From a virus: a DNA stretch of 64,000 bases. Shown piece after piece: positions 12,863 through 64,000 of the stretch (position 1 is the stretch's first letter; each line of letters starts with the position of its first letter). The DNA is taken from IMG/VR virus record IMGVR_UViG_3300046047_000262; one strand, given 5' to 3'. The notes below the pieces were generated by a model that saw only the letters and a list, made by a program, of their open reading frames with translations, was not told where the DNA came from and ran no database searches. Position numbers and translations under genes: made by a program.

Positions 12863-14428
12863 TTATTCTGAATCCTGATCCCAAGAGGAGGGTATGGTCA
12901 CACCATCGGGAATCGTCGGACGAGAAGGCTTAGATGGCTTAGTCTGATTAAGAATGTCAGGTTTAACAACCGTCCCCTCACAGTTCTTCTGAATAGCATC
13001 AGTATCCTGAGTCTGCGTCGGACTTGGCGTAGCCGTAGGAGATGCCGAACTGGAATCAGAAGGTGACGGTGATGCACTCGCACTTGATGATGGGTCAGTA
13101 CTATTGGCATCACTGGTACCATTCGAAGTAGCCGATGCTATACAAGTCTGTATATCCTTAGCGTACTGGTTAGCAGCGGCTGTCCGACGATCATCCCAAG
13201 TATTCCAATCCTTCCATTGTGCTATATAAGCATTCCATGATGGTAGCAAAGTGTTCCTTGCATCATTCAAGGTCTTCCATGATGCGTAAATACTATTCAC
13301 ATTAGCAGTATAGGAATCCCACGTAGATGAGAATGCCATGGTATAGGTTACCGATTGCGACCAATCAACAATCTGCTGGTTATAATTATCAGCATTATCC
13401 TGAATCTCCTTTTTAGCATTGGATACAAGAGTCCTGTGATTAGCGTCAAGTATCTTGGTGTTATACACGGGAACAGCCTGACCGCTCCATGCCCAACCAC
13501 AACCCGGACCATTATGATCAGCGGTCTGATACGTAATGGTTTTAGTGATGGATGGCTGTGATGGTTGGGAAGAGAATGTAGGAGATGATGGAGCCGATGG
13601 TAATGATGATTGCATCCCTGCCGGCAATGGCGTCAATGGTACTGATACGGACTGTATCTTCGGATCACTAAACACCTTTGACGAATCATATGATACATCC
13701 TTAGCTGATTGCGGATACGATGGTTGCAGGAACGTAACGGATTGAGTGACGTTCTCCGTCTTAATCAATCCCGTATAGGAATTCGCGTCATAATAGAAAC
13801 TGCGTTTGGCATCATCAGTGGTTTCATCCATGGCGATACACTGTGTTGTCGTCAAAGCCGCAGGAACCTTATTAGCGAACCAAGGTATCAGTTTCGATTG
13901 AAGATCCGTATCACTGGTCTGAATGGAGACTATGGAATCACCATAGGTGAACAAATACCCATCAGGATACTCCACGGCATTACCATTAGCTGAGGCCTTA
14001 GTATAACATTTACTTAAGGATGAAGCATACTTGTCATATTGTAAGCGTGCCTGACCAGCTCCGTAAGACTGTATCGCTATTTTGAACCCTTTACCTGAAG
14101 CTCCTTTTTGTATGAGCAATGCGTTGGAATCAGTAACCACCGTACACGTTTCAGGTAACATTGTGACATCAGATGAATCCGTTATCTTATTCCAATTGTC
14201 CGCATCTATACCAGTAGGTACGTTATTCAATAAATCATCCACGAAATCAATCGCAGGATAGCTCTTTGCTTGGAATGCTTTGGAATACGGTGAGTTGTCA
14301 GCTTTGACAGCGGTGATGTCGCTGTAAGCTTTCACGGCTTTGAAAATGAACCATCCTGATAAGAACACCGCAGCGACCATGCTTACGATAACAATGATTC
14401 GTCCACCTCGTTGAATATTATTCTTCAT
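12863..14428 (-). CDS. Secreted/membrane-anchored protein with Ser/Pro/Thr-rich segments
   Basis: N-terminal TM/signal, paired Cys, GPGCGWAWSGQ, low-complexity linkers. Confidence 0.7.
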   Translation of the reverse strand: MKNNIQRGGRIIVIVSMVAAVFLSGWFIFKAVKAYSDITAVKADNSPYSKAFQAKSYPAIDFVDDLLNNVPTGIDADNWNKITDSSDVTMLPETCTVVTDSNALLIQKGASGKGFKIAIQSYGAGQARLQYDKYASSLSKCYTKASANGNAVEYPDGYLFTYGDSIVSIQTSDTDLQSKLIPWFANKVPAALTTTQCIAMDETTDDAKRSFYYDANSYTGLIKTENVTQSVTFLQPSYPQSAKDVSYDSSKVFSDPKIQSVSVPLTPLPAGMQSSLPSAPSSPTFSSQPSQPSITKTITYQTADHNGPGCGWAWSGQAVPVYNTKILDANHRTLVSNAKKEIQDNADNYNQQIVDWSQSVTYTMAFSSTWDSYTANVNSIYASWKTLNDARNTLLPSWNAYIAQWKDWNTWDDRRTAAANQYAKDIQTCIASATSNGTSDANSTDPSSSASASPSPSDSSSASPTATPSPTQTQDTDAIQKNCEGTVVKPDILNQTKPSKPSRPTIPDGVTIPSSWDQDSE

Positions 14429-14895
14429 CGGCTTGCGTCAATCTCCTTTCGGATATTATATGAAAGCATTTTCAATGCTTCGAATTCGTTATTCATGAGA
14501 CGAGCCTGACGAGTAAGTTCTTTTGAATACTGCTGATATATTACCCAAGTATTCTCGTATTCCTCAACGGTGATCTGGGCGATTGACTTCTTGACGGCAT
14601 CGGTTCTTCCCTCACAAGTCAGATACGCCCTGGCGAATCGTCTTTCATATTCAAGCTTCGCAATGACTTCCTTACGCTCAGATACCCTGATAGCATTATT
14701 GATCTTGAACAATGCGGAACGAACTGACTCTATAGCACGATCAATGGCTATGATGTCATCATAGTCACCACCCTGACCACTATCACCCATGAGAACAGGT
14801 TCAGGCTTGTACACGCCCTCTATATTGATCTTCTCAGGAAACTTTGGAAGAACTATATCCCTCTCAGCGGGAATCTTATCATTATCGTCATTCAT
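14425..14895 (-). CDS. Helical coiled-coil protein, weakly UvsY-like
   Basis: 156-aa all-helical ORF directly downstream of radA; resemblance by eye only. Confidence 0.55.
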   Translation of the reverse strand: MNDDNDKIPAERDIVLPKFPEKINIEGVYKPEPVLMGDSGQGGDYDDIIAIDRAIESVRSALFKINNAIRVSERKEVIAKLEYERRFARAYLTCEGRTDAVKKSIAQITVEEYENTWVIYQQYSKELTRQARLMNNEFEALKMLSYNIRKEIDASR

Positions 14896-14901
14896 GATAC
14901 C

Positions 14902-14910
14902 ATTATACCG
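14902..14910 (-). promoter_or_regulatory. Class A -10 (CGGTATAAT), leaderless
   Basis: Exactly 6 nt before ATG at 14895. Confidence 0.65.
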
Positions 14911-14913
14911 ATA

Positions 14914-16299
14914 TCAGATGAGTTTGACCATATCACCTAATGATTCTATAGTGTCAATCTGAATGTCAACAGATGTTTTCAATGACCGCTTAGCGGATGC
15001 GGGTATGACGACACGTTCAAACCCCAAGCGTGCAGCTTCCTTAATCTTAGATTCCATCAATGATCGACCGCGTATCTTACCCGTCAAAGCGACTTCACCT
15101 ATCCACGCAGTCCGCGTATTGGGTTGATTATCAGCTGCACTGCTGATCACTGCAGCTGCTAGAGCCAAGTCAGCATTCGGATCACCTATCTGGACTCCTG
15201 ATATGGTACTCACGAACACGTCTGATTGACCTAATGAACATGACGGGACGTACTTCGAACAAGCCGCTATAAGAATGCGGCCACGATTGGTATTGTAACC
15301 ACTGAATTGACGTTGTGGTGACCCATATGCCGCATCAGCCACCAAAGCATTGATCTCTACGGGGAGTATCCTATTACCATCCTGTATGAATGTCTTAGCA
15401 GAACCTGCTATCAGTTCATTCATATCACCGATCAGGTATTCTGACGGGTCATCAACTGATTTCAACCCGTCATCCTCATGGACGAACACCGCGACCTCAT
15501 CGGTTTTACCATAACGGTTCTTTTGACTACGAAGGAATTTCAACCGTGTTTCCTTATCAGCATCACCAATAAAGATCGTATCAACCACATGGGCGATCTG
15601 ATTGCTACCAGCGACCTCATCTGACTTCGTGAACTGTGATATCAGGATGAACGCTACATCATTGTCCTTAGCATATTGTTTGAAGGATATGGCCGCTTCT
15701 TTTGATTGAGATACACCACCGATTGTCCCATCGACGGCATTCGAAGCCATGGTCTGCAATGAGTCAACAACCACGAACTCGGCATCATCATCAGTAGCAT
15801 GAGAGAACACGTCCTCGACTATCGTAGTGGACATGATACGAAGATGATCATCATTAATATGAAGCCTACGTGCACGCTGAGCGATCTGATGAGCGGATTC
15901 CTCACCTGATGCGTACAAGCAGTTGTATCCTTGTGATGACAGATTGCCAAGAACCTCCAATGCTAACGTGGATTTACCGAATCCAGGCTCAGCACCTATC
16001 AGGATTACCTGGCCTGGTAATATACCACCATCAAGAATACGATCAAACTCAGAGATATCCGTACTCACTCTGGGGATATCCTCATCAGAGAGACTATTCA
16101 CTGTATATGCTTTGGTATTGGATACATATGATGACTTCTTGCTGGCATTGACCCTCATACCAGCTGAAGGCTTTACCGAAGCACTCTCAGATTCCCTATG
16201 TACCGCAGTACCATAAGCCCCACACTCAGGGCATATCCTGAATTCCATGATAGCGGTTTTCCCGCAAGCCGAACATTCCCAACCGATACTATTAGACAT
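14914..16299 (-). CDS. radA: DNA repair protein RadA/Sms
   Basis: Zn finger CSAC..CPEC, GAEPGFGKST, YASGEES, VVDSLQT, KNRYG, Lon-like C-terminal domain; start moved to MSNSIG. Confidence 0.95.
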   Translation of the reverse strand: MSNSIGWECSACGKTAIMEFRICPECGAYGTAVHRESESASVKPSAGMRVNASKKSSYVSNTKAYTVNSLSDEDIPRVSTDISEFDRILDGGILPGQVILIGAEPGFGKSTLALEVLGNLSSQGYNCLYASGEESAHQIAQRARRLHINDDHLRIMSTTIVEDVFSHATDDDAEFVVVDSLQTMASNAVDGTIGGVSQSKEAAISFKQYAKDNDVAFILISQFTKSDEVAGSNQIAHVVDTIFIGDADKETRLKFLRSQKNRYGKTDEVAVFVHEDDGLKSVDDPSEYLIGDMNELIAGSAKTFIQDGNRILPVEINALVADAAYGSPQRQFSGYNTNRGRILIAACSKYVPSCSLGQSDVFVSTISGVQIGDPNADLALAAAVISSAADNQPNTRTAWIGEVALTGKIRGRSLMESKIKEAARLGFERVVIPASAKRSLKTSVDIQIDTIESLGDMVKLI

Positions 16300-16305
16300 A
16301 TCATT

Positions 16306-16314
16306 ATTATACCA
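16306..16314 (-). promoter_or_regulatory. Class A extended -10 (TGGTATAAT), leaderless radA
   Basis: Exactly 6 nt before ATG at 16299. Confidence 0.75.
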
Positions 16315-16363
16315 AAAATGGGTACCACCCATATCAGGTAGTACCCATGAGAAGGATTGGTGC

Positions 16364-17320
16364 TTATGATTCGGCGTTCAAACGATTCCATTCCCTAGTG
16401 ATAAGGTGTTTACCATCGACGTCCTTTTCTGCGAATCCCCTCTGGAAGCTCTCATTAGGATTCAATGCCAACGACCATTCGAGATCGGCTTTATCCGAAT
16501 CGTCAATGTCAGTCCTTGCGTCCAATGATTCAATATATGAGTACGCATCATCAACCGTGGCCTTAGGATGTGATAAAGCGTTCTTACTGTATTCCTTATC
16601 AAGTGGACCATCGGTTTTACGCAGTGCCTCTGACACGTAATCCGAGGGTAGTTTCTGAGCGATAAGACAACGAGACGGTGTGCTCGCCCACATGGTTCTC
16701 ATACTGTGTTCAGTGTTAGCAGGACTGTTAATGATCCATTCCGCAGCCTTGCCAGCGAACTTATGATTGGAAGCTAACTTATCAATGGTCTTATCCGAAA
16801 CATCAGGATCCATAACCAACATTTTAGTCATGTTCTCTTCAGCAGGTGATAACGGTCGTGATTCCTCACGATTATCAGCATAGGAAAGAAGCCTATCACT
16901 GAGAACCTTCTCTTCATCAAGACTGAGCGAGCGGCCATAATCAATATATTGCTGATGATCGGTATCAGCGAGCTCCGCTTCATCACTGAGTGTCGGATCA
17001 TTAGGAACGTTCTCAGTCGTGATACGTACAATCTTATGCTCGTTATCACGAACAGCCTGATCATAAACAGAATCTACGTCAATGTTCTGTAACGGGTTAT
17101 GTGATGCTTTACCGAGCTCTGATGACTGGTTACGATTTGCGATGACCTTCTCGTTGATGGCTTTGGCTTCATCCGCAGTCAGGTTGACATGTTCCACATG
17201 ATGACACCCATAACGACCCCTGTTACCAGGTTTCGCATGGCATACGGATACCGATCCGTCAGCTGATCGACCATATTGAACAGCTTGGGCGGATGAGCCA
17301 GTGCCTGAAGTTCTACTCAT
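16364..17320 (-). CDS. Protein with N-terminal Cys/His module and C-terminal helical (LRV/HEAT-like) repeats
   Basis: VCHAKPGNRGRYGCHHVEH...NEKVIANR; ALSHPKAT, LALNPN repeats; AAGGAG RBS. Confidence 0.65.
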   Translation of the reverse strand: MSRTSGTGSSAQAVQYGRSADGSVSVCHAKPGNRGRYGCHHVEHVNLTADEAKAINEKVIANRNQSSELGKASHNPLQNIDVDSVYDQAVRDNEHKIVRITTENVPNDPTLSDEAELADTDHQQYIDYGRSLSLDEEKVLSDRLLSYADNREESRPLSPAEENMTKMLVMDPDVSDKTIDKLASNHKFAGKAAEWIINSPANTEHSMRTMWASTPSRCLIAQKLPSDYVSEALRKTDGPLDKEYSKNALSHPKATVDDAYSYIESLDARTDIDDSDKADLEWSLALNPNESFQRGFAEKDVDGKHLITREWNRLNAES

Positions 17321-17364
17321 GATGATATCTCCTTTTCCAATCGTTTATCTACAAGAAGTATCTA

Positions 17365-17994
17365 TCAAGAAGCATCATCCGCATCAGACTCTTCCTCTTT
17401 CTCCCGTGCCTCTTGTTCTTTCAATAGCTCCTCTTTACGAATCTCGACCAATGCCGCTTGGGTGAGTTCATTATCCTTCTTGATCTGCTGTTCGAAAACA
17501 TCCCTGGGATCATCCAGTCCTTTTTCCTTAAGATCCTTCTCATCATCAGTAAGACGACAATAAGCAACGATAGCGTAGATTCCTGCAAGAACGAATCCAG
17601 CGCATACCGTATATAATGCCGAGAAGCTGCTGACAATGACCACAGCGGCGAGAACACCGCCGACCATCAAGGATTGTTGTATACGTTTATTCGGTGAGTA
17701 TCGTAATCTCCATTCCACATACTCATCAGCTTCGTCATCGGATTCCTCCGCTTTGCGTTTATTCGCATCCGACTGTCGTAATCCAATTAGATAACCCAAT
17801 GAGAAAATAGGTACCGACAATACTAATGCGACGAAAGCCCTGGTATAATTCCATAATGCTATATGGGGCAGAAAAACGTCGATAAGCACACTAGCAACTG
17901 ATAACACAATGATAGCAGGAATCATAGCCTGATAGAATGGCTTTTTCTTTTCCACCATAGTTGTACGAACCAAACCTAATAATCGTTCTATCAT
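17365..17994 (-). CDS. Multi-pass membrane protein
   Basis: About four hydrophobic segments, charged C-terminus. Confidence 0.7.
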   Translation of the reverse strand: MIERLLGLVRTTMVEKKKPFYQAMIPAIIVLSVASVLIDVFLPHIALWNYTRAFVALVLSVPIFSLGYLIGLRQSDANKRKAEESDDEADEYVEWRLRYSPNKRIQQSLMVGGVLAAVVIVSSFSALYTVCAGFVLAGIYAIVAYCRLTDDEKDLKEKGLDDPRDVFEQQIKKDNELTQAALVEIRKEELLKEQEAREKEEESDADDAS

Positions 17995-18650
17995 ATACCC
18001 TCCCTGGAATCATGCGTCCTGATCGCGAATAACGCTACACAAGATGTACTAGTAATCGATGGTGATGACAATGTACCATGATCACCTATACCAAATAAAT
18101 GATACCCGAATTTTACGAGTTGGTTACCTACACGCATGTCAACTGTTTCACCATGATAACAAAGGAACGTGAACATACTACCGTACTTGCTCTCCTGGAA
18201 TTTGCGTAATAGGAATGCGGTCATGCTGGCATATGAATACCTTGAACTGTTGGCTATGGAATCAATGACAATGAATGATCGTAATGATCGTAACTTCCTG
18301 ATCACCTTGGGGAATAATGCTGCTGCGGGACGCAACGCCGAGAAAACCGATAATGCGTTCTTATCATCATCAGTGCCGATATGGCCTATCATAACACCAA
18401 CAATCGCATGATCCGGCAATGCAGGATCAGGAGAGGGGATCTCCTTGTTACGTAACGTTATGATCACTTGATAATAATTCGTGCCATGTTCCCTTGCAAG
18501 TGCCATATCAAGGTTGTTCTCATGTATATCTTGGAACCCTTGATCCTGTGCTAGTATCCTCATTACCGATTGAAGATCACCATGTGTGAGCCTACCTACC
18601 GAATCCACGCCTGACTGACGAAGATCCAGATTCCTGTATGCTTTCAGCAT
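17991..18650 (-). CDS. Putative GNAT-fold protein
   Basis: VGVMIGHI, FIVIDSIA, LVKFGY pattern; GGGAGG RBS. Confidence 0.4.
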   Translation of the reverse strand: MLKAYRNLDLRQSGVDSVGRLTHGDLQSVMRILAQDQGFQDIHENNLDMALAREHGTNYYQVIITLRNKEIPSPDPALPDHAIVGVMIGHIGTDDDKNALSVFSALRPAAALFPKVIRKLRSLRSFIVIDSIANSSRYSYASMTAFLLRKFQESKYGSMFTFLCYHGETVDMRVGNQLVKFGYHLFGIGDHGTLSSPSITSTSCVALFAIRTHDSREGI

Positions 18651-18719
18651 GAATAATGTCCTCCCGTGTACCCTTTACACCTTGTAATAAGAATATCAGG
18701 AATCAACGAATATGAACGA

Positions 18720-19796
18720 TTATTCACACGATGCTATCTTCTGTTGAAGATATGATGCGTCAGATGGGTCAACCGATATACCCCATTTCTGTAATACACC
18801 AACAAAATCCTCGGCATAAGCACACTGATTGGTAGAAGGCATCCATTCCGATGGACCCTTATCACCCTTAGAACGATTAGCAAATGATGACACTGCTATC
18901 AGATGACCAGCGGTAGTATCATTGGCATATTGTTCCTTCTTCTCTGATGACCATGATTGACCGCCATGCGATGCGACATACCCCAATGGCACCACATGAT
19001 CAACATCAATGGTCTGCGTACTGGACATGACATTACCAGTATAAGGATCCTTCAATGATACGGACTCAATGGAACAACCATCAGCAGCAAGCTTTACTGA
19101 CTGTGCCTGCGTGGATACTATCTGTTCCCTGACATTCCAACATGACTTGCCTACACTATCCCATGTTTTCCACTCAGTACGGTTATAATTGACGTTCTGG
19201 GCCGATTGCACATGTAGGGAAGACAGTTCCGATAACGCCGAAGACTTGTTGACATTACCGAAAACATTGGAACCTGTAGTTAACGATGTATCAGTACTGG
19301 TAGAAGAGGATTCATCCAAACTATTCAGATAATCCTCTATCTTAGATTTGGCATCCTTGGCTTTATCCGAGTTCGCTAGTTCCTTGGCTTTATCCTTCAG
19401 CTTTTTCACTGAGTCCGAGTTAACTGAGTCCTTGGCCTTATTATACATCTTACTGTAATCATCCTGTACTTGCGAAGTATCTATGTCATTCAGGGAATCA
19501 TTGTCAACAGATGATGACGTCGGCGAACACGCTGAAAGAGTAGCGGTAATAGAAGCAACGGCCATGATCGAGAATGCGGCCCTACGCATAGTATCATAAC
19601 GATGCTTATTGATCGGAGCTCTATTGGATTGCATTCTGGAAGCGATGACTCGTTCATTGAATTCCTGGGCATCATACTTACTCATGCTTTGGTGCGATGA
19701 ATGATACGTACACTTACTCATATCCTGAGCACGGCATAATGTTACTTCACCCTTATGATTACCTTTAAGTACTACACCGTATATTGCATTACCCAT
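18720..19796 (-). CDS. DUF1524/HNH-family nuclease lipoprotein with N-terminal Cys/His module
   Basis: Lipobox TLSAC; YNRTEW, DPYTG, IDVDHVVPL, NRSKGDKGPSEWMP. Confidence 0.85.
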   Translation of the reverse strand: MGNAIYGVVLKGNHKGEVTLCRAQDMSKCTYHSSHQSMSKYDAQEFNERVIASRMQSNRAPINKHRYDTMRRAAFSIMAVASITATLSACSPTSSSVDNDSLNDIDTSQVQDDYSKMYNKAKDSVNSDSVKKLKDKAKELANSDKAKDAKSKIEDYLNSLDESSSTSTDTSLTTGSNVFGNVNKSSALSELSSLHVQSAQNVNYNRTEWKTWDSVGKSCWNVREQIVSTQAQSVKLAADGCSIESVSLKDPYTGNVMSSTQTIDVDHVVPLGYVASHGGQSWSSEKKEQYANDTTAGHLIAVSSFANRSKGDKGPSEWMPSTNQCAYAEDFVGVLQKWGISVDPSDASYLQQKIASCE

Positions 19797-19858
19797 ATGT
19801 TCTATCTCCTTACTTATGTTAATCTAACTTAATGCAACTGAACAATATGAACTAACTG

Positions 19859-20263
19859 TTATACTATGAAACGAATCTCACCATCATTGAAAGTCATATC
19901 CTTTATAGGCCCTGAACCTGTGGCGATAATATTGATATGCTCAGGCGATTCCCTGACTTTTTTGTAAACATCAGCTATTTTCTTCATTAATGGTAATAGA
20001 TCAATAGATCTTTCCTCATGAATATCCAATAGCTTCTCCCCGAAATCAAACGCATCATCAATACTACTGTTCATAGCATCATTGTCATGAACAGAATCGA
20101 TCTCGGTATCGGACGCACTCATGTCAAGAACATCAGCGAATTCGTTCATATTGACTTTTGATTCCGCATTGGTTATTGGGTCATCGCTGGACTTATCAGA
20201 TGTCGTTCTTGACAGTCCAGCGATGTAGGAAAGATCCTTATCAATCGTGTTGTTACTACTCAT
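19859..20263 (-). CDS. Hypothetical acidic protein
   Basis: 134-aa ORF with RBS. Confidence 0.6.
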   Translation of the reverse strand: MSSNNTIDKDLSYIAGLSRTTSDKSSDDPITNAESKVNMNEFADVLDMSASDTEIDSVHDNDAMNSSIDDAFDFGEKLLDIHEERSIDLLPLMKKIADVYKKVRESPEHINIIATGSGPIKDMTFNDGEIRFIV

Positions 20264-20281
20264 GGAAAGGTCTTCCCCTGT

Positions 20282-20608
20282 TTATTGCCCGTTGAAGGCG
20301 GCGTCACTGTTATTGCTGTTACCAACACTCTTAGCAGCATGTGAGAACATTGATGACAGGATACCGTCCTGACCGAACAGATCAGATCCGAAGAAGATCA
20401 ATGCACCAACAACAGCGGCGATACCAAGGAACGCCAACAGTTTGGTCCATTGCTGACCTCGAATGAAAGTGAACGCGGAAACGGCCACGATAGCTAGGAA
20501 CACTGGTGAAATCCAGTTTTTCAGTATCGATCCCCAGAGTCCGTTCAAACCACCAGTCGAAGCCATGAAGAATATGGCTTGAGTGTATAAGTATGATAGT
20601 GACAGCAT
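20282..20608 (-). CDS. Small two-TM TcpD/VirB2-pilin-like protein
   Basis: NWISPVFLAIVAV..FIRGQQWTKLLAFLGIAAVVGALIF; follows TcpC-like gene; AAGGGAG RBS before MLSLS. Confidence 0.55.
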   Translation of the reverse strand: MLSLSYLYTQAIFFMASTGGLNGLWGSILKNWISPVFLAIVAVSAFTFIRGQQWTKLLAFLGIAAVVGALIFFGSDLFGQDGILSSMFSHAAKSVGNSNNSDAAFNGQ

Positions 20609-20727
20609 TTGCGTTTCTCCCTTTCCTTGCGTACTTCGCACGTACAAGTATTCAATATCACCGATGATTCGGTTATTACACATACATGCTGAAATACAAT
20701 GTAGTACTTATCTAACGAGCTTCATTT

Positions 20728-22263
20728 TCAATTGGTACCTGAGGAAGATATCGACGCATCCGACGCAACATAATACTGGTACGGTTGGATGTCCTTGATA
20801 AGGTATTTCTTATCGGAAATAGGTTTCACGTACAATATATACTTGCTCTGGTATCCTATAGAACTATCCCCTGTAACAGTGTCTTTCCAAGCTACTGTTA
20901 CCAATGCTCGATAGTAACCATCATTATTAACAGGACCATATATCTTATAGGAGAGATCGCCCGCACGTGATACCAGACCATTCATACCTTGTAACGCCGC
21001 GGAAGTGCGGTCAGGTGTAGTCATAGTGCTTAACGTGGATTGTTTGGATGATGCCCATGCATCCATGTAATCGGTGAGCGTCTGAGTCATAGGAGTAGTC
21101 TCTTTACTCTTATCCTCTTGTCCATCTCCCGGTAGTTTGGTATCAGGGGCATTAGCCTGTTGTATTGTCTTTATATCAGGAATGATATTAGGTGAATCCT
21201 TTGATATCAGGAACGAATCCGATTTTGAGTCATAGTACACACCGACGTCAAAAAACATCCACTTATAGATGACATTGCCCTCACCATCCTTGACCTGTGC
21301 GCCAGATGTCGTATCAACCTGATAGACTAATGCACCTATAGTATAATCACCTGTTTTTGGTGTCAATGACTTACTGGAATACACGTATGGGCCGTATTCG
21401 ATACGCTGTCCGACGTTACCAGTGATATTAGCATTCCCTAATGTAGTAGCACCTTGACTGGATTGAGCATCAGCAGATGTCTTACCATTATAGAATACAT
21501 CAAGCAACTTTGAAGAAGAAGCATCTCCACCAAGCATAAGGTATGCTTGCATGAACTGCGTAGCAACACCTTGACCACGTGTTAAAGGGAACCCCGTGTC
21601 GCCATATTCAGCTGACGCTATAGACTGCACATCAGATTCAGTAAGTTCCTGTTTCGGTACGATGACATTGAAGATGGCTAATCCGACTATCACAATAACA
21701 ACCGCAATGATAAATATTCTGAATATATTAGCCTGTTTACGTCGATCGATCTTCTTATCGGAGTTATCCTCCATAGAGGTTTTCCTAGAATGCCTTTTAT
21801 CAACCGTATCGTTCTTCAGATTCTTTTCAAGCTGTTTCTTAACTTTCTTGCGTTTAGTATCAGCGATTTCACTATTCCGCTTCTCAGCAGCTAACTTAGC
21901 TTCCTGAATTTCACGATTAAGATCGTCCTGAGATGGAAGGTCATCATCAACAGAAGATTTATCCTCAGTATCCTCAGTTGTACTATCTGGTTCCGTAATG
22001 TCATCATCAATGAGATCATCATCGATCGAAGAATCATGCTCATCCAAAAGCTCTGTATCGTGAGATTGATCATCCTGTTCCTGATCATCATTGAAATAGT
22101 TGATATCATCACCATCAAGTGAGTCATCTGAAAACAAACTGTCATCATCGTCCGCAGACGGCTCACTTGCATTAAAATCAAGTGAAGGCAACTCATCGCC
22201 CTCATCAAGTTCTACTCTGACCTGATCATCATCCTGATTGGTTCTTCTTCTTGGTAGTGCCAT
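20728..22263 (-). CDS. Conjugal transfer protein TcpC-like (VirB8-like) with long acidic N-terminus
   Basis: One TM then two NTF2-like domains (FPLTRGQGVATQFMQAYL; TLTDYMDAWAS; ALVTVAW; YQSKYIL). Confidence 0.7.
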   Translation of the reverse strand: MALPRRRTNQDDDQVRVELDEGDELPSLDFNASEPSADDDDSLFSDDSLDGDDINYFNDDQEQDDQSHDTELLDEHDSSIDDDLIDDDITEPDSTTEDTEDKSSVDDDLPSQDDLNREIQEAKLAAEKRNSEIADTKRKKVKKQLEKNLKNDTVDKRHSRKTSMEDNSDKKIDRRKQANIFRIFIIAVVIVIVGLAIFNVIVPKQELTESDVQSIASAEYGDTGFPLTRGQGVATQFMQAYLMLGGDASSSKLLDVFYNGKTSADAQSSQGATTLGNANITGNVGQRIEYGPYVYSSKSLTPKTGDYTIGALVYQVDTTSGAQVKDGEGNVIYKWMFFDVGVYYDSKSDSFLISKDSPNIIPDIKTIQQANAPDTKLPGDGQEDKSKETTPMTQTLTDYMDAWASSKQSTLSTMTTPDRTSAALQGMNGLVSRAGDLSYKIYGPVNNDGYYRALVTVAWKDTVTGDSSIGYQSKYILYVKPISDKKYLIKDIQPYQYYVASDASISSSGTN

Positions 22264-63999: not shown

Positions 64000-64000
64000 T

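Follow-up and report, generated by a model that had tools for sequence, protein, structure and literature searches.

Two genes with a shared N-terminal module

The window analyzed here is a 64-kb stretch of DNA (64,000 nucleotides) from IMG/VR virus record IMGVR_UViG_3300046047_000262, in which all long open reading frames (ORFs) lie on the minus strand; P, L, and G numbers denote the proteins, loci, and large records compared. Two of these ORFs, carrier 1 (P0001) and carrier 2 (P0002), begin with a common module of about 50 residues with shared cysteine and histidine positions and continue into different tails, namely, a helical-repeat domain in carrier 1 and a lipoprotein signal with a nuclease domain in carrier 2 (Table 1). 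The neighboring genes are a RadA-like gene behind carrier 1 and, ahead of carrier 2, a TcpC-like gene with two small genes; two further genes separate the carriers. The shared module had been proposed in a first-pass annotation, and both ORFs are as described there. In a pairwise BLASTP comparison, 45 residues of the two N termini aligned with 36% identity and 62% positives (E value of 2e-5), and no alignment was obtained between P0001 and P0002 outside their N-terminal modules. A third copy of the module was not found within the window by a six-frame regular-expression search or with a hidden Markov model (HMM).

Both start codons are preceded by a strong AAGGAG site, and the internal Met70 of carrier 2, where the lipoprotein signal starts, has no such site upstream; the N-terminal extensions are therefore translated within both proteins. 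A public automatic gene call for carrier 1 (P0004, 277 amino acids [aa]) starts at a GTG codon (V42) inside the module, which is thereby halved, the affected stretch being 17195-17320 (-). To judge from the upstream sequence, this start is very probably wrong, and mis-started calls of this kind can hide N-terminal heads in databases and automatic annotation.

Table 1. Carrier genes, their parts, and the intervening genes in the window (AF2, AlphaFold2; pLDDT, predicted local distance difference test)
Feature	Position	Strand	Basis
Carrier 1 (P0001, 318 aa): N-terminal module, disordered linker, predicted alpha-solenoid	16364..17320	-	ORF; AF2 full-length model, pLDDT 81; 12-member cargo family
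Carrier 1 module, residues 13-65, C-x11-C-x-H-x2-H class: predicted three strands, Cys/His loop, NE helix	17126..17284	-	AF2 pLDDT 86; HMM E value of 1e-26 (97-sequence family profile)
Carrier 1 low-confidence linker, residues 66-79, with L-G-K at residues 69-71	17084..17125	-	pLDDT <50 at 67-79; motif enrichment
L-G-K of the carrier 1 linker	17108-17116	-	[LM][STGNQ]K motif
HEAT/LRV-like helical-repeat (solenoid) cargo of carrier 1, residues ~113-318	16367..16984	-	AF2; NP/SP/HPNA motif repeats in alignment A5
AAGGAG ribosome-binding site, 8 nt before the carrier 1 ATG at 17320	17329..17334	-	
Carrier 2 (P0002, 358 aa): N-terminal module, internal lipoprotein signal, S/D/K-rich linker, GmrSD_C nuclease	18720..19796	-	
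Carrier 2 module, residues 4-57, C-x7-C-x2-H-x2-H class	19626..19787	-	HMM E value of 7e-15 (97-sequence family profile)
Carrier 2 internal lipoprotein signal, residues 70-90: basic n-region, hydrophobic core, lipobox LSAC	19527..19589	-	Arrangement shared with P0038, P0062, and P0073
GmrSD_C/DUF1524 His-Me-finger nuclease domain of carrier 2, residues 248-342	18771..19055	-	PF07510, E value of 7.8e-6, 26.3 bits
AAGGAG ribosome-binding site, 9 nt before the carrier 2 ATG at 19796	19806..19811	-	
Two genes separating the carriers: 219 aa, soluble; 209 aa, four hydrophobic segments	17365..18650	-	Order kept in syntenic locus L006; neither matched to a family

A family of N-terminal heads

Word-based protein searches gave almost no matches besides P0003 and P0113. 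Other carriers were sought, as the first-pass annotation had proposed, with a profile, and many were found: a single search of 1.84 billion cluster representatives with a three-sequence profile (the heads of P0001, P0002, and P0003), a census in which more divergent heads are not included, returned 107 representatives at E values of ≤1e-3, including 26 at ≤1e-10. These proteins are 58 to 1129 aa long, and the profile matches at residues 1 to 60 in almost all of them. The first cysteine of the module has a median position of residue 19, and in 102 of 109 proteins it falls within residues 1 to 30; P0108, the weakest match and one with an internal position, is probably a false positive. The relatives are conserved at the amino acid level across contigs with GC contents of 0.40 to 0.63. 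The third carrier, P0003, has a head that is 60% identical to that of carrier 1 and an unrelated tail (24% identity in a forced global alignment), and the sample from which it comes (SRR16378897) also contains contigs encoding proteins identical to those of the window. Between orthologues of the window and of locus L006, a 74-kb ENA contig, identity is 50 to 55% for the heads, 59% for the nuclease domain, and about 30% for the linker and solenoid. By these alignments, the similarity of the modules is far beyond chance, and P0001 and P0002 can both be assigned to an undescribed, strictly N-terminal domain family of about 50 residues.

More divergent heads of the form YHIS-x-DG...C-x-A...C...H[FY]...A..Y are encoded at L008 10279-12402 (-), L004 14849-15808 (-), and L001 2489-2773 (+), with E values against the profile of 0.09, 7e-5, and 1.2, respectively, and their pattern suggests a wider superfamily. 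The gene for P0003 (L001 3169-5326 [+]) is immediately followed by Cas1 and Cas2 genes, and two type IV pilin-like genes are located close by. In a scan of species genomes with a single narrow peptide pattern, which gives no evidence on the absence of the family from isolates, the only match, in an Acidiferrum metagenome-assembled genome, was rejected as a truncated chance match.

Anatomy and predicted fold of the module

The family signature is [YF]G-x-N-x-DG-x2-S-x-C-[RK]-A-K, followed by a loop of 7 or 11 residues, C-x1-2-H-x2-H, and then [ML]-T-x2-E-A-x3-N-E within a helix. The C-x-[AS]...C...H...H set is present in 103 of 106 carriers, the three exceptions having an insertion or a truncated start. 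Two spacing classes can be distinguished: a C-x11-C class ("CRAKPENxGRYxC") with 79 representatives, which includes carrier 1, and a C-x7-C class ("CRAKDPSxC") with 24, which includes carrier 2. The originally proposed pattern is corrected in the spacing of its first two putative ligands, which is C-x11-C in P0001 and C-x7-C in P0002. Alignment A3, with 97 sequences, shows invariant C18 and H35, conservation above 95% at G8, G13, and A20, and conservation of 73 to 86% at Y7, D12, K21, N24, N47, and E48. All members outside the C-x7-C class have C30 and H32; in that class, a Cys and a His sit four and three alignment columns earlier, respectively. The Cys and His positions therefore move together between the classes, a compensated ligand shift of the kind expected for a metal site, and the C/C/H/H set plausibly binds a metal.

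AF2 modeling on A3 (pLDDT of 86) placed strands at residues 5 to 9, 15 to 17, and 34 to 38 and a helix at residues 40 to 58, and the full-length model of carrier 1 reproduces this fold ahead of the low-confidence linker (pLDDT of <50 at residues 67 to 79). The module is therefore predicted by modeling to fold autonomously as three strands and a helix. Its net charge is about 0, with +1.9 in the core and -1.9 in the helix. The linker behind it is flexible and rich in Ser, Thr, and Lys, and a [LM][STGNQ]K motif, mostly L-S-K, occurs 21 to 36 residues past the last His in 36 of 100 carriers, compared with 4.8% of background windows (odds ratio of 11; P value of 1e-19). A looser pattern of this motif matches 67 of 103 carriers, and carrier 2 has only I-N-K. 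The linker motif could be a processing or docking site.

Comparison with known domains and folds

No known domain was recognized in the module. Searches of Pfam-A 2025, NCBIfam 20, and PHROGs v4 with P0001, P0002, P0003, and the excised heads (E values of ≤0.1 to 1) gave no match to it, and over the 106 carriers the Pfam, NCBIfam, and PHROGs matches fell only on tail domains. A profile search of the PDB sequences returned only a nonsignificant resemblance to SRCR repeats (E value of 3.3), and an ESM Atlas feature search gave no usable match for the head. The best Foldseek E values for the module model were 4.1 (PDB), 0.85 (AFDB clusters), and 0.38 (BFVD), none of them significant, and an exhaustive VIA-align run gave a best Z-score of 3.5, which is at noise level. 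The top structural neighbors, the N domain of ribosomal protein L9 and chromo/PWWP folds (Z-scores of 2.9 to 3.1, also at noise level), share a small sheet and a C-terminal helix with the module. Structural matches to the module were confined to unnamed ESM Atlas clusters of the same family, with template modeling (TM) scores of 0.65 to 0.67. With many carriers found and no characterized domain matched, neither of the outcomes named in the first-pass annotation as speaking against a shared module occurred, which favors the finding.

Three known systems resemble the module family in part. The LRV protein of Azotobacter vinelandii (PDB accession number 1LRV) has a small N-terminal Fe-S domain (Pfam LRV_FeS) followed by helices of leucine-rich-repeat variants. 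Carrier 1 similarly has a small Cys-containing putative metal domain N-terminal to a helical-repeat solenoid, and two other carriers match Pfam LRV repeats. However, LRV_FeS (PF05484) has four conserved Cys ligands, whereas the module has two Cys and two His and no Pfam match; in addition, the module is also joined to non-LRV tails, and 1LRV was not retrieved by the PDB profile search. Small structural zinc fingers (C2H2 beta-beta-alpha, zinc ribbon, and treble clef) share with the module a length of about 50 residues, a short hairpin or sheet with a helix, and four putative Cys/His ligands. The C-x7/11-C-x1-2-H-x2-H spacing differs, however, from a CxxC knuckle, both His residues of the module precede the helix rather than lying on it, and neither Foldseek nor VIA-align gave a match above noise. 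A resemblance in architecture is seen with the polymorphic toxins and polyvalent proteins of phages and conjugative elements (heads such as LXG, MuF-N, and ArdC-N; PMC5512222), in which a flexible linker connects an invariable N-terminal head to numerous unrelated effector-like tails, nucleases among them, and which occur on mobile elements with several carriers per element. The module family shows the same constant head with variable C-terminal domains, but the module has no sequence or fold relation to these heads, is much smaller (about 50 aa), and has a Cys/His site, and one of its cargo classes has its own Sec/lipoprotein signal.

Cargo tails and the topology of carrier 2

Of the tails, 99 are at least 40 aa long, and these formed 48 BLAST components at E values of ≤1e-5, a number that is an upper bound on unrelated types because remote kin and fragments get split. 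The largest class comprises HNH-type proteins of about 360 to 400 aa (24 representatives, 17 of them with PF01844, and matches to PHROG HNH families), followed by the alpha-solenoid family of carrier 1 (12 representatives, with weak but consistent HEAT/LRV/ARM-like matches) and the lipoprotein nuclease family of carrier 2 (4 representatives). Three representatives have tails with Pfam LRV or HEAT repeats, one (P0094) has a superfamily 2 (SF2) helicase tail, and 35 tails are unannotated singletons. The solenoid family contains both spacing classes, with 5 and 7 members. The description of the module as portable therefore holds: it is strictly N-terminal, it stands ahead of up to 48 unrelated tail groups, and a nuclease cargo occurs with and without it.

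The helical repeats attributed to carrier 1 in the first-pass annotation were recovered as a predicted alpha-solenoid. Its AF2 model has 12 helices with a pLDDT of >90 at residues 130 to 315, and its weak structural matches were to HEAT and LRV proteins in the AFDB (E values of 3e-3 to 4e-2) and to ARM/PUF designs in the PDB (E values of 0.05 to 0.3); no Pfam match was obtained for it.

The lipoprotein signal and nuclease attributed to carrier 2 were likewise found. The nuclease domain scores above the PF07510 gathering score of 23, and a GmrSD_C domain is also recorded for P0038. The lipobox, LSAC at residues 87 to 90, fits the pattern [LVI][ASTVI][GAS]C. The signal is not at the extreme N terminus, as it begins at residue 70, and in all four family representatives the head comes first, then a basic n-region with a hydrophobic core, then a lipobox L[SA]AC (between residues 87 and 122), and last the GmrSD_C nuclease, in agreement with the proposed placement of the module ahead of the signal peptide on the cytoplasmic side. 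This conserved arrangement indicates that head and nuclease end up on opposite sides of the membrane, so that the head cannot guide the nuclease to its substrate and the module acts apart from its cargo. A folded cytoplasmic domain ahead of a lipoprotein signal peptide is an unusual precursor architecture that bears on export and lipidation. In the large record G001, an orthologue of carrier 2 that is 40% identical over the nuclease domain lies beside a TcpC-like gene and has an ordinary short N terminus with no head, which indicates that the head is an optional addition to the same cargo.

A protein of 417 aa encoded at L009 6072-7325 (+) has another Cys/His head (C-x6-C, two His, and then F-x-GF-x-T-x-GEA-x-EY), a membrane segment, and a GmrSD_C nuclease. 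It repeats the layout of carrier 2, a small Cys head, a membrane segment, and an exported nuclease, with a divergent head.

Elements that carry the module

The carriers were found on uncultured conjugative plasmid-like elements of 170 to 550 kb, with at least one contig labeled as human oral metagenome. Positions 1-21104 of L006 are syntenic with positions 8291-29514 of the window, with the full gene order kept and protein identities of 25 to 62%. The shared block comprises DnaB, PD-(D/E)XK, SSB, RadA, both carriers, TcpC-like, Clp ATPase, and DnaN genes, and L006 retains a counterpart of each carrier at the corresponding position, P0112 (32% identity to carrier 1) and P0038 (44% identity to carrier 2). 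Judging from this synteny, the block is old and conserved in the element family. Two carriers each are present in the window and in L006, two adjacent carriers and a weak third in L008, and one carrier and a weak second in L004 (a 727-kb contig).

The HNH-type carrier occurs once each in IMG/VR records G001 (398,101 bp), G002 (420 kb, with terminal repeats, and therefore likely complete), and G003 (201 kb). A metagenome scan added 28 loci with HNH-type carriers on contigs of up to 547 kb, with GC contents of about 0.45 or 0.56. In 25 loci (among L010 and L042-L067), a DUF7487 gene of the same orientation always precedes this carrier (e.g., L052 8160-11167 [+]), and the pair is flanked by an FtsK-like gene and by opposite-strand NrdD, clamp loader, and Pol III alpha genes, a two-gene unit with an unvarying place in the replication region of these elements. 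Such a fixed syntenic position marks the HNH-type carrier as a core gene and not as a sporadic homing endonuclease.

G001 (L020-L039) shares 38 proteins with the window, including PBP1A (46% identity), RadA (40%), RecG, Clp, three VirB6-like proteins, a TcpC-like protein, and a sigma factor. In G001 to G003, no Pfam match to Terminase_6N or the HK97 capsid was found, and a VirB4-like AAA_10 match above the cutoff is present. The HNH-type carriers had also been considered as genes of huge phages, on account of viral labels in the ESM Atlas and IMG/VR; this reading was dropped because of the 38 proteins common to G001 and the window, the missing terminase and capsid matches, the VirB4-like AAA_10 match, and the fixed synteny. 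Just past window position 64000, a Replicase (PF03090) gene at L011 171-1970 (+) precedes Rce1-like and RecG genes, and its domain assignment supports a plasmid-type replicon. The window and its relatives probably represent, as far as gene content tells, a single broad family of giant conjugative plasmid-like elements that in some cases have been filed as viruses.

Megablast of window positions 14000-22000 gave no match in PLSDB or INPHARED, and tblastn with the heads of P0029, P0035, and P0059 gave no match in 72,556 plasmids (PLSDB) and 50,697 phage genomes (INPHARED). Hodor megaplasmids, which were also considered, are described from gut Bacillota. Inocles are giant circular plasmid-like elements (about 395 kb; range, about 245 to 395 kb) of the human oral microbiome with a GC content of 24 to 32%, and 95% of their genes are without known function (PMC12340149). 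The elements described here resemble Inocles in size, oral habitat, VirB4-like genes, a bifunctional penicillin-binding protein, DNA replication and repair genes, and a sigma factor. Their GC content differs, being 44% in the window and 45 to 47% or 55 to 56% in its relatives, in a comparison made with the published description of Inocles. The Inocle paper does not mention the module, and the words "zinc" and "HNH" have 0 occurrences in it (PMC12340149). Taken together, the sequence comparisons outline a previously undescribed domain that is always N-terminal and is attached to dozens of different tails by related giant elements. Since it is compact and apparently confined to uncultured giant elements, the module can serve as a marker for finding such elements, and it allows unknown proteins that are otherwise unrelated to be treated as a single functional set.

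Possible functions of the module

The module is tentatively regarded here as a zinc-stabilized cytoplasmic recruitment head on a flexible linker, a reading that is preferred although its probability is judged to fall somewhat short of even. The two Cys and two His residues would coordinate a structural zinc ion, and the head would work in the cytoplasm as a recruitment or anchoring domain that binds one common partner, which may be a protein of the element or of the host or the nucleic acid of the element. Unrelated tails would in this way be gathered at one place or machine, whatever their own activities. In carrier 2, the head would be kept inside the cell and the nuclease exported, with a cut by signal peptidase II at the lipobox separating them; if this peptidase acts, the head can act only before or during export or as a membrane-tethered leftover. 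A recruitment head would account for the positional invariance, the cargo independence, the presence of several carriers per element (compatible with a partner that they share inside the element), and the lipoprotein arrangement. A module of only 50 residues is also a simple experimental entry point, as metal binding and partner binding can be asked directly.

Several observations weigh against a recruitment head. The C-x7/11-C spacing is unusual for zinc knuckles, and the conserved residues R19, K21, N24, T39, E42, N47, and E48 could be purely structural in a domain this small, with no binding surface evident. G001 to G003 have one carrier each, so that many tails per head are limited to some lineages. 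About 29 of the 99 scored tails are nucleases (HNH type or GmrSD_C) or an SF2 helicase, which would be compatible with a nucleic-acid-binding head as well.

These tails lead to the main contender, in which the module would bind DNA or RNA as a small zinc finger and tether nucleases, helicases, and repeat proteins to nucleic acid, such as the DNA of the element itself. The loop between the two Cys residues is basic (R-A-K-P-E-N-R-G-K-G-R type), in keeping with the positive charge of the core, and in the 25 related loci replication genes surround the HNH-type carrier, a syntenic core gene. The charge of the whole module is nevertheless about 0, unlike that of a general DNA binder, and the helix is acidic. 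The L9 N domain and the PWWP/chromo-like neighbors bind nucleic acid, but their structural Z-scores are under any meaningful level. In the lipoprotein nuclease family, moreover, head and nuclease lie on opposite sides of the membrane, and DNA-binding modules are usually not as confined to the N terminus as this one. A nucleic-acid finger is therefore considered unlikely, with a substantial minority chance.

It is improbable that the module is an export address that marks proteins for type IV secretion by the element into recipients, alone or on transferred DNA, a translocation role of the kind raised in the first-pass annotation. The elements do have VirB6/TrbL, TcpC-like, and VirB4-like genes, and carrier 2 adjoins a TcpC-like gene in the window, in L006, and, without its head, in G001. 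The layout of constant head, flexible linker, and variable tails is also that of the trafficking domains of polymorphic toxins and polyvalent proteins (PMC5512222). One tail has a faint match to the LPD1 polyvalent-protein domain (E value of 6e-3, below the cutoff). However, the known substrate signals of type IV secretion systems are mostly C-terminal or internal, whereas the module is N-terminal, and the Sec/lipoprotein signal directly behind the head sends carrier 2 down another pathway. In addition, a recurrent small immunity-like gene downstream of the carriers was not seen in the neighborhoods inspected, which were not analyzed systematically for it. A more specific version, which is similarly a long shot, gives giant oral plasmid-like elements a dedicated pathway with the head as its address label; the carriers would be brought together at the conjugation or replication machine and would enter new hosts along with the DNA, with L-S-K as the release site. 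If this were true, the list of carriers would be the establishment and effector set of the element.

A removable pro-domain or regulatory cap, which would act by autoinhibition, as a degron for a Clp-type ATPase, or as a metal or redox sensor and would be released at the L-S-K of the linker, is very doubtful. The linker motif is enriched and lies in a disordered stretch, the head of carrier 2 would in any case be removed at the lipobox, and the window, L006, and G001 all keep a Clp-family AAA+ gene close by. The motif is nonetheless absent or weak in about a third to two-thirds of the members, depending on the definition used, and is I-N-K in carrier 2; no protease of such specificity is encoded beside the carriers, and, to our knowledge, no protease with specificity for an L-S-K-type linker motif is known.

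Chance similarity of the N termini, or a conserved untranslated leader read in frame, is excluded despite the start of P0004 inside the carrier 1 module, given the AAGGAG sites before both ATGs, the 107 protein-level relatives on contigs of widely differing GC content, the confident AF2 fold, and the better conservation of the module than of the linker between orthologues.

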